Shown: positions 27,929-59,041 of the stretch, piece after piece | How the letters are laid out: the number at the start of each line of letters is the position of its first letter | Position numbering within the stretch: the stretch's first letter is position 1 | Origin: Minisyncoccota bacterium | Lineage (GTDB): Bacteria; Patescibacteriota; Minisyncoccia; Phycocordibacterales; UBA9973 | Direction: 5' to 3' | Length of the DNA: 64,000 bases | NCBI GenBank assembly: GCA_035491955.1 | Contig: DATJJU010000015.1 | Span: 30,440 to 94,439 of the forward strand | Program-made: the position numbers and the translations under genes | Notes under the pieces: model-generated | Told to the model about the DNA's origin: nothing | Databases searched by the model: none | The model's input: the letters and a program-made list of their open reading frames with translations, nothing else

Positions 27929-28267
27929 CTATTTCTTGTGAACTGTTAGTGTGGCTCTTGGCCTGTTCTCGCGATACATTTCAAGACCGTGTGTTTCAGG
28001 TATTTCTAAGTCTAGATCAGAAAACGCATCGATTATCTTTTTAAATCTCAGCACCTTTCTTTGAAATGCGTTAATATTTTTAACTCTTCGAAAGTCCTTA
28101 AGAAATTCTTCAAAGTAATCTTTCAAGGCTTCTTTAGCGTACAATAACTTTATAGTTTTTCTCCAAAAGGTAATAGTAGCTTTTCTGGTAGTTAAGTTCA
28201 TTTGGATACGTATAGTATCGCCCTCTTGTAATGTAGTTTCCTGATCTTTAATCTTAAGCTGTATCAT
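27929..28267 (-). CDS. hypothetical protein
   Basis: 112-aa ORF with no family I recognise. Confidence 0.35.
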   Translation of the reverse strand: MIQLKIKDQETTLQEGDTIRIQMNLTTRKATITFWRKTIKLLYAKEALKDYFEEFLKDFRRVKNINAFQRKVLRFKKIIDAFSDLDLEIPETHGLEMYRENRPRATLTVHKK

Positions 28268-28365
28268 TATTCTATTGTTTTGTATTCCTATTGTTTATAG
28301 CACAGTATTAGAAAAAAGTTGACTTTTGTGGTATAATGGGTGCCGTGGAAAAAGGAAGGAGAAAA

Positions 28366-30984
28366 GTGGAGAGTGCGGCTGAGACCATTGTAGTTAAAGG
28401 TGCCCGTACTCATAACCTTAAAAATATTAGTGTAGAAATGCCTCGTAATGCCATGGTGGCTATTACGGGAATGTCAGGTTCAGGCAAGAGTTCCTTAGCA
28501 TTTGATACTATTTTTGCAGAAGGCCAACGTCGATACGTTGAGTCGCTCTCTTCTTATGCGCGGCAATTCTTGAACCAAATGCCAAAGCCTGATGTTGATG
28601 AGATCACCGGTCTCTCACCAGCCATCTCTATCGACCAAAAATCTCGCTCAAACAACCCCCGCTCAACAGTTGCGACTATTACCGAGATCTATGACTATCT
28701 TCGCGTGTTGTATGCTCGTGTTGGTAAGGCATACTGTCCTGTTTGTGGCACTCTGATTCAGAAGCTTTCGATGGAAGAAATTAATGGATTCATTCTGGAC
28801 AAGATCAAGGATCTTTCTAAAGCAAAGAATAAAGAAGTCATGGGTGTTGCATGGAACGATACTCGCATTCAGATTTATGCGCCTGTTGTTCGCGGACGAA
28901 AAGGTGAGTACTACCAGTTGCTTTACGATTTGCTCGGACGTGGCTTTTCTACCGTACGTGTTGATGGGCAGCTCAAGAGTCTCCGTGAGCGCATTGAAAT
29001 GAATAAGACTACTCCGCACACTATTGAAGTATTGGTGGACGAACTTGCTGTGCACGAATTCAAAGATACTCCTCGTGATGCAGAGCTTCGCTTATCAGAA
29101 GCGGTAGAACGTGCTCTCTTGGAAGCTGATGGTTTGGTGCAAGTAACATTTGGCACGTCGCCAGATTTCTCAATGGATACAGACTTGCTACAAGAATTTC
29201 TTCTTTCAAGTAAATTTGCTTGTCCAAATGACGGCTTCTCATTTCCAGAAATTGAACCGCGACTCTTTTCATTCAACAGTCCGTATGGCGCATGTCCTAC
29301 CTGTAATGGTATCGGTACAAAGTTTTTTGGCGGCACAGAACCGTGTGAGACCTGTCACGGCAAGCGCTTGCGCCCTGAGGCATTGAATGTTTTTCTCGGA
29401 GAGCATTCTGCTACAAAGCACGGTCAGAATATTGTTGATGTAACAAGTATGTCTGTAGAAGAAGCGTTTGATTTCTTCGTATCATTGAAACTCTCTTCAA
29501 AAGATAAGGAGGTTGCTCGAGCAGTATTGAAGGAAATCGAAGACCGCCTGAATTTCTTGCTGAATGTTGGTCTGGAATACTTGGCGCTCAGTCGTACCGC
29601 AAATACTCTTTCTGGCGGAGAAGCACAGCGTATTCGTTTAGCTTCACAGCTTGGTTCACGTCTCGTGGGGGCAATGTACGTCTTGGATGAGCCAACCATT
29701 GGTCTGCACCAGCGCGACAATGAACGCTTGATCCGTACGCTCGAAGACTTGCGCGATATCGGCAACACTATTCTTGTTGTCGAGCACGATGAGGATACTA
29801 TTTTTGCATCAGACTATATTGTTGATATCGGTCCAAAAGCTGGAGTGCATGGCGGAGAAGTGGTGGTGTCAGGCTATCTCGATAAATTGCTTGCAGCGAA
29901 AACTAATCCTTCTGGTTCGCGAACGCTCGCATATCTCCGAAAGGAAGAGCAGATAGAAGTGCCGGAGAAGCGGCGAGATGATGACAAGGGCACTATTAAA
30001 GTCGTCGGAGCAAATCTTCACAATATTCATAATCAAAACATTGATGTACCGCTCGGACGCATGGTAGCAATCACTGGCGTGTCAGGTTCAGGGAAAAGTA
30101 CATTCTTGTACGATATTTTGTATAGCAATCTTCAGGCTCGCTTTGAACGTAAAATGCGCAGTGCGAAGACATTTAATTGCGCGTCATTTACAGGCAGTGA
30201 ATACTTAGCGCGCGCTATTCTTATTGATCAATCGCCGATCGGCCGTACGCCGCGTTCAAACATTGCTACATACACTGGAGCGTTTACCCATATTCGCGAG
30301 CTCTTTGCTTCCACCGAAGAAGCGCGCTTGCGCGGCTGGAAAGTAAACCGCTTCTCCTTCAATGTTAAAGGCGGACGCTGTGAAGCGTGTGAAGGCAATG
30401 GTGAAATTGCCGTAGAGATGCACTTCTTGCCGACTGTCTATGTGACGTGCGATGTCTGCGGAGGAAAGCGCTTCGATAAAGAAACCCTAACAGTGAAATA
30501 CAAGCGCAAGAGCATTTACGATGTCTTGCAATTGACCGTAGAAGAAGCTATGGAATTCTTCCAGGATATTCCAGCTATTTCAGATCGCCTTACAACACTG
30601 AATGACGTTGGTCTTGGCTATGTGAAGCTTGGACAAAGTGCTACCACGCTTTCTGGTGGCGAAGCGCAGCGCGTAAAGATTGCCTCAGAACTGTATCGCC
30701 CATACCTTGAAAAGACTATTTACCTGCTCGATGAGCCAACTGTTGGCTTGCACTACGATGATGTGAAGAATCTTATCGGTGTTTTGAATCGTCTTGTTGC
30801 CAAAGGAAACACTGTTGTTGTGATCGAACACAATCTTGATCTGATCAAAGCTGCCGACTGGCTGATCGACTTCGGCCCCGAAGGTGGAGTTCACGGTGGT
30901 AAAATCGTTGCTAAAGGCACACCTGAAGCTGTCGCCAACAACAAAAACTCCTTCACTGGCCATTATCTAAAGAAAATTTTATAA
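28366..30984 (+). CDS. uvrA: excinuclease ABC subunit A
   Basis: Two ABC ATPase modules and Zn fingers are present. I chose the GTG start at about 28366 (RBS AGGAAGGAG 5 nt upstream; N-terminus 'MESAAETIVVKGARTHNLKN'). The track's ATG at 28336 sits inside a TGgTATAAT extended -10 box. Confidence 0.92.
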   Translation: MESAAETIVVKGARTHNLKNISVEMPRNAMVAITGMSGSGKSSLAFDTIFAEGQRRYVESLSSYARQFLNQMPKPDVDEITGLSPAISIDQKSRSNNPRSTVATITEIYDYLRVLYARVGKAYCPVCGTLIQKLSMEEINGFILDKIKDLSKAKNKEVMGVAWNDTRIQIYAPVVRGRKGEYYQLLYDLLGRGFSTVRVDGQLKSLRERIEMNKTTPHTIEVLVDELAVHEFKDTPRDAELRLSEAVERALLEADGLVQVTFGTSPDFSMDTDLLQEFLLSSKFACPNDGFSFPEIEPRLFSFNSPYGACPTCNGIGTKFFGGTEPCETCHGKRLRPEALNVFLGEHSATKHGQNIVDVTSMSVEEAFDFFVSLKLSSKDKEVARAVLKEIEDRLNFLLNVGLEYLALSRTANTLSGGEAQRIRLASQLGSRLVGAMYVLDEPTIGLHQRDNERLIRTLEDLRDIGNTILVVEHDEDTIFASDYIVDIGPKAGVHGGEVVVSGYLDKLLAAKTNPSGSRTLAYLRKEEQIEVPEKRRDDDKGTIKVVGANLHNIHNQNIDVPLGRMVAITGVSGSGKSTFLYDILYSNLQARFERKMRSAKTFNCASFTGSEYLARAILIDQSPIGRTPRSNIATYTGAFTHIRELFASTEEARLRGWKVNRFSFNVKGGRCEACEGNGEIAVEMHFLPTVYVTCDVCGGKRFDKETLTVKYKRKSIYDVLQLTVEEAMEFFQDIPAISDRLTTLNDVGLGYVKLGQSATTLSGGEAQRVKIASELYRPYLEKTIYLLDEPTVGLHYDDVKNLIGVLNRLVAKGNTVVVIEHNLDLIKAADWLIDFGPEGGVHGGKIVAKGTPEAVANNKNSFTGHYLKKIL

Positions 30985-31694
30985 AAAACAGCGACCTGGT
31001 CGCTGTTTTAATTTTAATTTATCTACCTTTGCTAGACTCATTTTTAATGAGAAAACAGAAGTTTGGGGTTGGTGAAAAATTTCACGTATTTAATAGAGGT
31101 GTTGATAAAAGACATATTTTTTTAGATAAGAATGATGTCGAAAGATTCCTGCTTTGCATGAAAATCTTTAATGATGTAGAGCTGTCTGGAAGTCTCAAGA
31201 AAGCACTTTCTAAAAAGTATATGAAAAGCGACGCAGTTCCGCTGGTTAATTTTATTGCACATTCACCCGAGATAAATCATTTCCACTTTATCCTTGAAGA
31301 AGCGGTGGAAAATGGAATTAGTAAATTTATAAAAAGAGTAACTGGTGGCTATGCCTGGTACTTTAATAACAAATACAAAAGATCAGGTACTTTATTTGAA
31401 TCTCCTTTTAAAGCAAAACATATTGGATCAAACGAGTACTTATTATATGTAAGTGCCTATGTAAATCTAAATGATCAACAAAAACAATACAGCGACCTGG
31501 TCGCTGGAATATCTAGCTGGGGGGAATATAAGACTAATAAGCCCACATTCTGTACTCATAAACATCTTGTACTTGATCAATTCGAATCGCCGGAAGATTA
31601 TGAAAGGTATGCCTTAGAAGTGCTTGAACAGGTAAAACTTAACAAGCAAAGATATAAACTTTTAGATCTATAAAAAACAGCGACCTGGTCGCTG
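30982..31694 (+). mobile_element. REP/RAYT-like unit: IS200-like HUH Y1 transposase bracketed by three copies of a palindromic repeat
   Basis: TAAAAAACAGCGACCTGGTCGCTG occurs at 30982-31005 and at 31671-31694. A diverged copy (CAGCGACCTGGTCGCTG) lies at 31490-31506 inside the ORF. The TAA of the repeat provides the stop codons of both uvrA and the transposase ORF. Confidence 0.6.
31029..31673 (+). CDS. IS200/IS605-family Y1 (HUH) transposase, REP-associated tyrosine transposase (RayT, COG1943)-like
   Basis: N-terminus 'FHVFNRGVDKRHIFLDKNDVERFL', HUH motif 'NHFHFIL', and a Tyr-containing helix 'WYFNNKYKRSGTLFESPFKAKHI...YLLYVSAYVNLN'. Confidence 0.65.
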   Translation: MLDSFLMRKQKFGVGEKFHVFNRGVDKRHIFLDKNDVERFLLCMKIFNDVELSGSLKKALSKKYMKSDAVPLVNFIAHSPEINHFHFILEEAVENGISKFIKRVTGGYAWYFNNKYKRSGTLFESPFKAKHIGSNEYLLYVSAYVNLNDQQKQYSDLVAGISSWGEYKTNKPTFCTHKHLVLDQFESPEDYERYALEVLEQVKLNKQRYKLLDL

Positions 31695-47891: not shown

Positions 47892-47963
47892 GCTCTTGTA
47901 GTTAAATGGATATAACTGCTCCGTCCTAAGGAGTAATTGTCAGTTCGATTCTGGCCAAGAGCA
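47892..47963 (+). tRNA. tRNA-Arg (anticodon CCU)
   Basis: GCTCTTGTAGTTAAATGGATATAACTGCTCCGTCCTAAGGAGTAATTGTCAGTTCGATTCTGGCCAAGAGCA. Its D-arm and anticodon arm closely resemble E. coli tRNA-Arg(CCU). Confidence 0.85.
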
Positions 47964-47964
47964 C

Positions 47965-47998
47965 AAAGAAAATACCCTTAACGGGGTATTTTCTTTGT
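47965..47998 (+). terminator. intrinsic terminator
   Basis: AAAGAAAATACCC-ttaacg-GGGTATTTTCTTT. Confidence 0.65.
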
Positions 47999-48046
47999 GC
48001 TCTTAAATTAAATAGCCACATGTAGCTGATTTGTTATAATTAGGGC

Positions 48047-48463: not shown

Positions 48464-48536
48464 GCTCAGGTAGCTCAGTTGGTAGAGCGCTCCCCTGAAG
48501 AGGGATAGGTCACCAGTTCGACCCTGGTCCTGAGCA
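48464..48536 (+). tRNA. tRNA-Phe (anticodon GAA)
   Basis: GCTCAGGTAGCTCAGTTGGTAGAGCGCTCCCCTGAAGAGGGATAGGTCACCAGTTCGACCCTGGTCCTGAGCA. An 11-bp palindrome CACAGAAATAT-aa-ATATTTCTGTG lies immediately upstream (48427-48450). Confidence 0.85.
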
Positions 48537-48560
48537 CAGAAGAATCAGAGTAAAATACAC

Positions 48561-48592
48561 AAAAGGGCGCGCCGTCGGCGCGCCCTTTTGTG
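48561..48592. terminator. bidirectional terminator AAAAGGGCGCGCC-gtc-GGCGCGCCCTTTT
   Basis: A GC-rich 13-bp stem between tRNA-Phe (+) and hsp20 (-). Confidence 0.75.
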
Positions 48593-48612
48593 TTAAATAC
48601 TCAGTGTTTAAC

Positions 48613-58391: not shown

Positions 58392-58421
58392 TTTGACAAA
58401 AAAAGTTGATTTAGGCAAACT
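58392..58421 (+). promoter_or_regulatory. conserved 30-nt upstream motif TTTGACAAAAAAaGttgATTTAGGCAaACT (copy 1)
   Basis: Near-identical to the copy at 59012-59041. It contains a perfect -35 TTGACA. Confidence 0.45.
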
Positions 58422-59011: not shown

Positions 59012-59041
59012 TTTGACAAAAAATGCGCATTTAGGCAGACT
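59012..59041 (+). promoter_or_regulatory. conserved 30-nt upstream motif (copy 2)
   Basis: TTTGACAAAAAAtGcgcATTTAGGCAgACT. Confidence 0.45.

Follow-up and report, generated by a model that had tools for sequence, protein, structure and literature searches.

A RAYT-like Y1 gene flanked and interrupted by its own palindrome: a probable REPtron-like unit with relatives in Patescibacteria

What kind of element is a transposase-like gene that carries the same GC-rich palindrome in front of it, within its reading frame and behind its stop codon? This question is raised by a locus between uvrA and the polyprenyl synthase gene ispA of a Minisyncoccota bacterium (GTDB phylum Patescibacteriota), which we analysed within a window of 64 kb (64,000 nt of contig DATJJU010000015.1; coordinates are positions in this window). 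A first-pass annotation had described it as a mobile unit built from a transposase gene and repetitive extragenic palindromes (REPs). Our analysis indicates that the locus is probably a REPtron-like unit, composed of the gene of an HUH/Y1 single-stranded DNA (ssDNA) nuclease resembling the REP-associated tyrosine transposases (RAYTs) and of three copies of its own cognate palindrome. This unit is one member of a large variant of the RAYT/REPtron theme in Patescibacteria that seems to have gone undescribed, and whose position-conserved and co-varying palindrome architecture had not been noticed in the first-pass annotation. Literature searches found no description of this Patescibacteria family of hairpin-bearing Y1 genes. 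REPtrons are treated by Nunvar 2010, Bertels and Rainey 2011 and Ton-Hoang 2012.

A 17-mer core (CAGCGACCTGGTCGCTG) occurs exactly three times in the 64 kb, at 30989, 31490 and 31678, each time at the Y1 gene, and no fourth copy was found anywhere in the window when up to 3 mismatches were allowed. Its 6 strand-wise matches compare with 0.07 expected, and none of 100 shuffles attained 6. Folded as ssDNA, the three copies form hairpins with stems of 7-11 bp and loops of 3 nt (hairpin 1, -11.5 kcal/mol, z -4.9; hairpin 2, -7.5 kcal/mol, z -5.4; hairpin 3, -7.5 kcal/mol, z -2.9). The repeated 24-mer with its hairpin core and the bracketing of the gene by palindrome copies, both recognised in the first-pass annotation, were borne out (Table 1), the direct repeat proving to be 26 nt long. 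The internal copy does encode the peptide YSDLVAG, as had been proposed; it is not diverged, since its 17-nt core is exact and the flanks alone differ (85% identity over 26 nt). Unlike the bacterial interspersed mosaic elements (BIMEs), in which REPs alternate in orientation and are joined by short linkers, the three hairpins lie 501 and 188 nt apart, are separated by conserved coding sequence and present their loops in the same orientation, so that the proposed BIME-like array has to be given up.

The repeats had also been credited with supplying the stop codons of both uvrA and the enclosed reading frame. The right copy indeed holds the TAA of the Y1 gene. The stop of uvrA is its own: because uvrA carries its own TAA in relatives lacking the element (...TTATAA, ...CTATAA, ...CTTTAA), the left copy abuts or copies this stop rather than providing it. 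The enclosed open reading frame (ORF) itself was confirmed, and it likely starts at ATG 31047 (208 aa) and not at TTG 31029 (214 aa). The shorter form is preferred because the 208-aa product is identical to a database protein (P0001) with the source name 'transposase, Candidatus Paceibacterota', whereas a database look-up with the 214-aa form gave no match.

To place the three hairpins in a wider context, we turned to the family of the encoded protein. When 1.84 billion representative proteins were searched with a profile, 1,123 clusters (defined at 50% identity) were recovered at E <= 1e-30. By source names and record titles, membership of the family is almost wholly confined to Patescibacteria, with Paceibacterota, Giovannoni-, Nomura-, Zambryski- and Moranii-bacteria among the lineages named. 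The best match of the window gene among GTDB representatives was at 54%. We took 79 homologous loci from GTDB species genomes of Patescibacteria and scanned 82 loci in all for GC-rich hairpins, recording hairpin centres relative to the ATG. The centres fell into four sharp peaks with none between them, compared with a background of 0.08 per slot in 1.13 Mb of flanks. The upstream slot (UP, about -40) was occupied in 74/82 loci, the first in-frame slot (IN1, about +175, before the HuH strand) in 41/82, the second in-frame slot (IN2, about +445, just past the Tyr motif) in 44/82, and the slot within the first 60 nt past the stop (STOP) in 60/82. The window occupies UP, IN2 and STOP, the first, third and fourth of these. 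In two loci at 53-54% protein identity (L001, L002), palindromes likewise precede the gene, occupy the same internal codon position and follow the stop, with stems unlike those of the window.

The family hairpin follows the consensus (C)ACTTGG-NNNN(N)-loop-(N)NNNN-CCAAGT(G). Its foot is conserved family-wide, while the inner stem is constant within a locus and variable among loci, the same 13-nt core being found in about 85-90% of within-locus slot pairs. The foot of the window hairpins, CAGCG...CGCTG, represents a less common type that is shared by three further loci (L015, L027 and L057) with another inner stem. At the in-frame slots, which correspond to codons ~55-66 (IN1, before HuH) and ~145-155 (IN2, after the Tyr motif), the hairpin is always read as CTT GGN ... 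NCC AAG, giving L-G-x-x-x-[A/S/P]-K; the reading in the window is SDLVAG. In one family member (P0326), the hairpin-coded peptide CKGPTFA is found at IN1 and again as a tandem pair within the C-terminal domain, which suggests a third permissive in-frame slot.

Next to position, the pairing itself appears to be conserved. When 83 in-gene hairpins were aligned by their centres, 94.6% of stem cells paired, a percentage that is circular given that the set was chosen for pairing, so that the diversity of pair types and the controls with slid columns are the informative measures. Both-side changes were found at 9/10 stem positions. Doubly changed cells numbered 165 against 45.7 in shuffles, with 0/500 shuffles reaching 165, and the covariation score was 0.553 against at most 0.15 with the partner column slid. 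This pattern of compensatory change argues that the hairpins are maintained as structures. They also turn over rapidly: in the pair L018 and L020 the gene DNA is 80-90% identical, yet all inner stems have been replaced with full compensation, and hairpin turnover therefore outpaces protein divergence. In L170, the closest relative of the window unit, the hairpins of IN2 and STOP are alike TAGCGACC-A-GGTCGCTA, compared with CAGCGACC-T-GGTCGCTG in the window, and thus two sites have undergone the same concerted change of the outermost pair, from C:G to T:A. When slots are compared, their loops are in direct or inverted orientation about equally often, which implies that copying works from either strand, as expected of a two-fold symmetric site. 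The central codon is TCA or TTA in 31/83 in-frame hairpins, where a flip would produce a stop (TGA/TAA); in these, the sense orientation is evidently kept by selection. Mixed hairpin types occur inside loci L018, L010 and L013. In L014, a convergent, truncated second Y1 copy lies beside the main gene (1632-2015 on the minus strand; hairpin region 1882-1908) and has a different hairpin type, CTGGACATCGGATGTCCAG, which is translated three times in its ORF, as DIRCP or DIGCP.

The product of the window ORF is a predicted HUH/Y1 protein of the IS200/RayT superfamily, on the evidence of both sequence and structural model. This had been proposed in the first-pass annotation, and the Pfam check bore it out: Y1_Tnp (PF01797), a domain carried by most homologues too, scored 27.2 bits (E 4.6e-6), above its gathering threshold of 23, with residues 73-146 aligned to positions 41-119 of the 121-position profile. 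N77, H78, H80, Y138, N140 and N142 are invariant in an alignment of 42 homologous sequences. An AlphaFold (AF2) model built on the homologue alignment reached a mean pLDDT (predicted local distance difference test) of 82 and placed Y138 in helix 129-140. In a Foldseek comparison of this model with the PDB, the top match was 4er8, the E. coli RAYT in complex with a REP hairpin (E 5e-4, probability 1.0), followed by 2a6m, 2vhg, 2vjv, 2xo6 and others, the transposases of IS608 and ISDra2, with probabilities of ~1.0. A profile search against the sequences of solved structures returned noise alone (RNase A, E ~0.01; ISDra2, E 0.7). Scans with NCBIfam, PHROGs and PADLOC gave no meaningful match, and hence no phage or defence link, and an Rfam scan of the window detected tRNAs only.

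The last ~60 codons had been regarded as possible read-through into a second REP-bounded segment. Here the homologues speak otherwise, as query coverage is 91-100% in all 120 homologues listed, S157, E160, C169, Q178, F179 and Y185 are invariant, and the model predicts confident helices at 157-162, 173-176 and 182-206, with pLDDT 90-96 across residues 161-200. Alignment and model together thus support the last ~55-60 residues as a true conserved domain, in which Pfam detects no helix-turn-helix (HTH). Both in-frame slots fall into segments modelled with low confidence. IN1 coincides with a surface loop (~residues 55-66) before the strand that precedes the HuH strand, and IN2 with a predicted linker (residues 141-156) that joins the Tyr helix to the C-terminal domain. 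The internal hairpin of the window accordingly lies ~10 codons past Tyr138, just after the catalytic core, in agreement with the earlier description of its position at the end of that core.

How long the unit has resided at its site could be judged from relatives found via UvrA homologues (92-93% identity) with the gene order uvrB-uvrA-ispA-x-uvrC. In L164, L165 and L166 the site is empty: uvrA directly adjoins ispA, with spacers of ~20-100 nt, and all three, like the window past hairpin 3, have a recognisable ispA promoter region (TTCTTGAG...ATGATG). Behind uvrA, L164 has an unrelated ordinary terminator and L165 has none. This comparison of the junction upholds the proposed insertion between uvrA and the polyprenyl synthase gene. 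In L167-L169 the spacer contains an unrelated 189-aa gene (L167:6640-7300) without Pfam match and with its own terminators, from which it follows that the uvrA-ispA spacer is a variable site in this clade. The candidate that this gene is a diverged relative of the Y1 gene was ruled out (hhalign probability 0.3%). A metagenome scan for empty sites with the polyprenyl synthase was swamped by the generic VHDDIMDN motif (best 38% identity). The clade also varies in the uvrB-uvrA spacer, with a 112-aa ORF without family in the window (27929-28267, minus strand), an unrelated 111-aa ORF in L164, a 152-aa ORF in L167 and nothing in L165.

A recent mobile insertion is contradicted by L170, which has the unit at the same site, with 66% identity of the Y1 protein and 62% of the adjacent ispA product. 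Because the site is retained while Y1 and ispA have diverged to a similar extent, these sequences indicate an old insertion between uvrA and ispA that has been vertically inherited. Such long vertical retention matches RAYT-like behaviour and not that of an active insertion sequence (IS).

In L018 and L020, homology runs from the foot of the UP hairpin to that of the STOP hairpin, with unrelated sequence on either side; the outer hairpins thus probably mark the limits of the unit that moves between genomes. Partial copies are rare (~3/82 loci). L082 has an orphan N-terminal module, whose homology breaks off precisely at the 3' foot of a hairpin of IN1 type with a flipped loop that reads TGA. 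In L002-L004, a second C-terminal module (63% identical) follows the stop and is closed by a fourth hairpin. In L171 the gene stops two codons past IN2, 30 nt before the contig end, so an assembly break is possible. The 79 loci come from genomes with 1-2 copies each, and pairs from the same genome are 35-83% identical per module. Per-module identities correlate weakly (r 0.25-0.41), and a few close pairs are discordant, which might point to module shuffling. In the discordant pair L040/L044 (modules 96/86/53% identical), however, the DNA alignment showed a gradient and no break at the hairpin, so that the discordance may reflect faster evolution of the C module; module shuffling was therefore rejected as a demonstrated mechanism.

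Second full-length family copies were observed 3-7 kb from the first (L071:3743-4396, L020:6390-7082, L022:7281-7952 and L045:4605-5297, minus strand). That of L071 has its own hairpin type (GGGTGTC vs GGGGGCT), as if each paralogue had a private palindrome. Furthermore, L003 contains a separate 117-aa Y1_Tnp gene (301-654), 2.3 kb upstream of the family member, which is absent from the otherwise matching contig L002.

These boundaries and copy numbers bear on the strongest competing explanation, namely that the hairpin-gene-hairpin segment is an autonomous IS200/IS605-like element moving by 'peel and paste', with excision in the form of a single-stranded circle and subsequent re-insertion. 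The identical outer hairpins would then be its left and right ends, and the 26-nt direct repeat an integration junction. Such elements share with the window unit the fold and the HuH/Tyr chemistry of TnpA (IS608, ISDra2) and the hairpin-to-hairpin segment as mobile unit, and their subterminal DNA hairpins are recognised as single strands. The outer hairpins bound the unit in different genomic contexts, relatives have empty sites, several genomes carry 2 copies and partial copies end at hairpins, all as expected of an IS. However, same-genome copies are divergent, at 35-83% identity per module, and no near-identical ones were seen, and the site has been kept during the divergence of Y1 and ispA to 66% and 62%. 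Moreover, IS200/IS605 elements (subclass 1.1) have a Y---Q motif, a TnpA of ~150 aa, two different subterminal end hairpins, many identical copies and often tnpB, and their insertion yields no direct repeats. The window unit, in contrast, has YVNLN, 208 aa, identical hairpins, uvrA and ispA as neighbours, no tnpB and no second copy in the window. We consider this explanation unlikely, although it is compatible with the REPtron-like interpretation.

The UP slot also has promoter-like features. TAnnnT is located exactly 14 nt 3' of the UP hairpin centre in 30/70 loci, as opposed to 1/57 at the STOP slot. The TTGG of the UP 5' foot sits 17 nt upstream of TAnnnT, and the ATG follows 6-7 nt after it. 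From this spacing, the UP hairpin appears to have a built-in sigma-70-type promoter, with a putative -35 element often in the 5' arm, from which a leaderless mRNA would probably be transcribed. In the window, hairpin 1 is ~50 nt 5' of the ATG, whereas the family mode is 26 nt. By analogy with the family, TAGACT is a possible -10 element of a leaderless or near-leaderless mRNA, and a consensus promoter scan of the window did not call it. Hairpin 1 is also a predicted terminator-like site of uvrA in this genome. In its outer part, this hairpin is similar to the terminator that follows uvrA in L167 (TAAAAACAGCCGAACGGCTGTTTTTT). The candidate that hairpin 1 is a captured older terminator of that kind (L167, AAAACAGC...GCTGTTTT) was not retained, being inseparable from chance.

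Alternatively, the hairpins could act mainly at the level of RNA or transcription, by termination, attenuation, mRNA stabilisation or translational pausing, the link to Y1 being regulatory and not enzymatic. Hairpin 1 scores as an intrinsic uvrA terminator, the UP hairpin overlaps a promoter-like -35/-10 pair in ~40% of loci, and REPs elsewhere are known to stabilise mRNA and to terminate transcription (PMC3733652). Against such a role, the in-frame and after-stop copies lack a T-run on the coding strand, and the same palindrome occupies transcribed and untranscribed positions in either loop orientation. In addition, the association is specific for one protein family, relatives of which are seen in solved structures to bind DNA hairpins, and gene copies that break at a hairpin would be left unexplained. 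This renders an exclusively RNA-level function quite improbable.

Equally doubtful in our estimation is a gene that edits itself by HUH chemistry, in which the in-frame palindromes would be working recombination sites and the enzyme would cut and rejoin the hairpins of its own gene. Hairpins would thereby be overwritten in place, which would account for their concerted turnover, and hairpin-bounded modules (N, core, C) could be lost, duplicated or exchanged between copies. A flipped hairpin would turn the loop TCA/TTA to TGA/TAA and so toggle between full-length and truncated protein. Hints in this direction are anecdotal and consist of the mixed hairpin types of L018, L010 and L013, the orphan and extra modules of L082 and L002, the early gene end of L171, and the roughly equal frequency of the two loop orientations.

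Finally, a duplicated terminator with a chance in-frame palindrome at an ordinary, unlinked conserved gene, for which the mere three, local copies and the terminator-like hairpin 1 might speak, is refuted by the multi-slot layout with locus-specific stems in dozens of loci at 40-55% protein identity and by the low expectation for the 17-mer.

The REPtron-like interpretation was further compared with known systems. REPtrons consist of RAYT/TnpA_REP genes flanked by cognate REPs, with E. coli yafM/TnpA_REP (4er8) as an example that has the same HUH/Y1 fold and is the best structural match. Like REPtrons, the family combines a gene bracketed by a short GC-rich palindrome particular to that gene with low copy number per genome, divergent paralogues and gene-hairpin co-evolution. 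Unlike in REPtrons, the palindrome is fully two-fold ('double foot') and has hardly any dispersed copies, the Tyr motif lacks the final Pro, the C-terminal domain comprises ~55 aa and the host phylum is Patescibacteria.

Quentin, Siguier, Chandler and Fichant (2018; PMC6006769) split the Y1 proteins into 12 subclasses and also described long 'double foot' palindromes. In their subclass 2.4 (Bertels group 4), found mainly in Cyanobacteria and Bacteroidetes, in-frame REPs occur inside the tnpA_REP genes, a property called unique to 2.4; its motifs are NH[IFV]H / WQ / YIxNNP, with insertions between HuH and Tyr (PMC6006769). The family resembles 2.4 in having palindromes within the nuclease gene, in peripheral loops and with the frame intact, besides the flanking copies. 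It differs in its motifs (NH[FY]H / FQ / YVNLN[DNF]) and in its slots, which lie before HuH and after the Tyr motif at conserved positions. Subclass 2.1 (Bertels group 1; 'TIRYT' of Di Nocera et al. 2013), with NH[YF]H, FQ, Y[IV]HLNP and a median of 238 aa, is reported to lack REP-like hairpins and to have instead terminal inverted repeats with GGGG[AT][CG]A[CG], and its C-terminal domain is like HTH/DnaA_C (PMC6006769). It is the closest match to the family in a comparison of printed motifs rather than by phylogeny, the first two motifs matching and the third in part, and both have a similar length class and an extra C-terminal domain. In contrast to 2.1, hairpins are the rule in the family and Pfam detects no HTH C-terminally. 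The supplement of the 2018 paper contains no names from the candidate phyla radiation (CPR) and no ACTTGG repeat.

Di Nocera et al. 2013 (PMC3733652) reported REPs located within unrelated genes, as well as stop codons provided by the ends of REPs. As in Rickettsia palindromic elements (RPEs) and intragenic GTAG/CGTC REPs, the palindromes of the family are translated in functional proteins and their ends provide or abut stops. RPEs and intragenic REPs are scattered over many unrelated genes, whereas the family palindromes are at fixed positions in the gene of the presumed enzyme itself. Altogether, the principle of in-frame REPs was already known, and the family differs in motifs, guide, slot positions, family-wide conservation and concentration at the gene.

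Combining these lines, we propose the following mechanism for the REPtron-like unit. By analogy with E. coli TnpA_REP and REPs and with TnpA and the IS608 ends, the encoded enzyme would bind the hairpins on ssDNA and cut near their feet. The in-frame copies may be ancient REP-type insertions that persist owing to their location in two permissive surface linkers, and the current hairpin version would spread to every slot, in whichever orientation, through the enzyme or through recombination (gene conversion). The outer hairpins would delimit the segment that moves between genomes, and the UP hairpin could enable the protein or hairpin extrusion to throttle its own promoter.

Several points weigh against this proposal. 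Dispersed genomic copies define REPs and give RAYTs their presumed role. Here, dispersed copies of REP type are nearly absent, with 0 in the other 63 kb of the window and 46 hairpins of the same type outside the unit in 1.21 Mb of relatives' flanks (0.04 per kb), most of them at most 1.5 kb from the gene or in second gene copies. The hairpins are thus not a dispersed REP/REPIN population, and a REP in this sense, as named in the first-pass annotation, was not seen; the census covers the window and the relatives' flanks rather than whole genomes, so that a modest dispersed population is possible. The family hairpins further differ from canonical REPs in lacking the GT[AG]G guide tetranucleotide, having feet of (C)ACTTGG or, in the window, CAGCG. 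The class 2 Tyr signature Y---NP (Table 1 of PMC6006769) is partly present, as the family reads Y-V-N-L-N-[D/N/F] with invariant Y and N and without P. The UP hairpin of the window, unlike that of most relatives, does not overlap the putative promoter. The link between enzyme and hairpins is drawn by analogy with solved relatives, and ordinary gene conversion without any role of the enzyme could explain the concerted evolution. To these is added the circularity of the pairing percentage mentioned above.

Table 1. Features of the uvrA-Y1-ispA locus in the 64-kb window.
Feature	Position	Strand	Remarks
uvrA ORF	28336-30984	+	own TAA stop
26-nt direct repeat, left copy TATAAAAAACAGCGACCTGGTCGCTG	30980-31005	+	found by repeat search; opens with the final codons and stop of uvrA (TTA TAA)
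24-mer TAAAAAACAGCGACCTGGTCGCTG, first copy	30982-31005	+	TAA is the uvrA stop
Hairpin 1 (UP), AAAACAGCGACC-T-GGTCGCTGTTTT and T-rich tail	30985-31009		11 pairs; terminator-like call
Candidate -10 hexamer TAGACT	31033-31038	+	8 nt 5' of the ATG; by analogy with the family only
208-aa HUH/Y1 (RAYT-like) gene	31047-31673	+	ATG 31047; stop TAA 31671-31673
HuH codons N77-H78-F79-H80 (NHFH)	31275-31286	+	read from the sequence
Tyr motif codons Y138-V-N-L-N-D	31458-31475	+	Y138, N140 and N142 invariant; putative catalytic role
Hairpin 2 (IN2), CAGCGACC-T-GGTCGCTG	31490-31506		exact 17-mer; in frame, read (Y)SDLVAG
C-terminal domain (~residues 155-208, SSWxEY...C...QF...Y...)	31509-31670	+	invariant residues; predicted helices
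26-nt direct repeat, right copy TATAAAAAACAGCGACCTGGTCGCTG	31669-31694	+	includes the stop codon of the gene and hairpin 3; 100% identical to left copy
24-mer TAAAAAACAGCGACCTGGTCGCTG, second copy	31671-31694	+	TAA is the Y1 gene stop
Hairpin 3 (STOP)	31678-31694		exact 17-mer; no T-run on the + strand

Elsewhere in the window, two probable strong terminators are associated with tRNAs: a perfect 21-bp inverted repeat (47957-48004), which extends into the 3' end of the tRNA at 47892-47963, and a 27-nt GC-rich palindrome (48548-48602; GGGCGCGCCG core) just past the tRNA at 48464-48536. Near two tRNA genes, the direct repeat TTGACAAAAAA(A/T)G...ATTTAGGCA(A/G)ACT (30 nt; 58392-58421 and 59012-59041) looks like a repeated promoter, and the GGT/GGC/GGA-rich repeats at 1941-1993 are probably glycine-rich coding sequence.

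RAYTs are the standard example of transposase 'domestication', and their role and mechanism are still debated, largely because an enzyme and hundreds of dispersed REPs are hard to link experimentally. The Patescibacteria family would offer a stripped-down RAYT system, with the gene and essentially all of its hairpins in one unit of 700 bp, in which recognition and copying of hairpins by a Y1 enzyme, self-regulation and enzymatic turnover become testable questions. It would also extend in-frame REP insertion past the one subclass to which it has been called unique. For annotation, it suggests that such 'transposase' calls in reduced CPR genomes denote long-resident units and not active insertion sequences.

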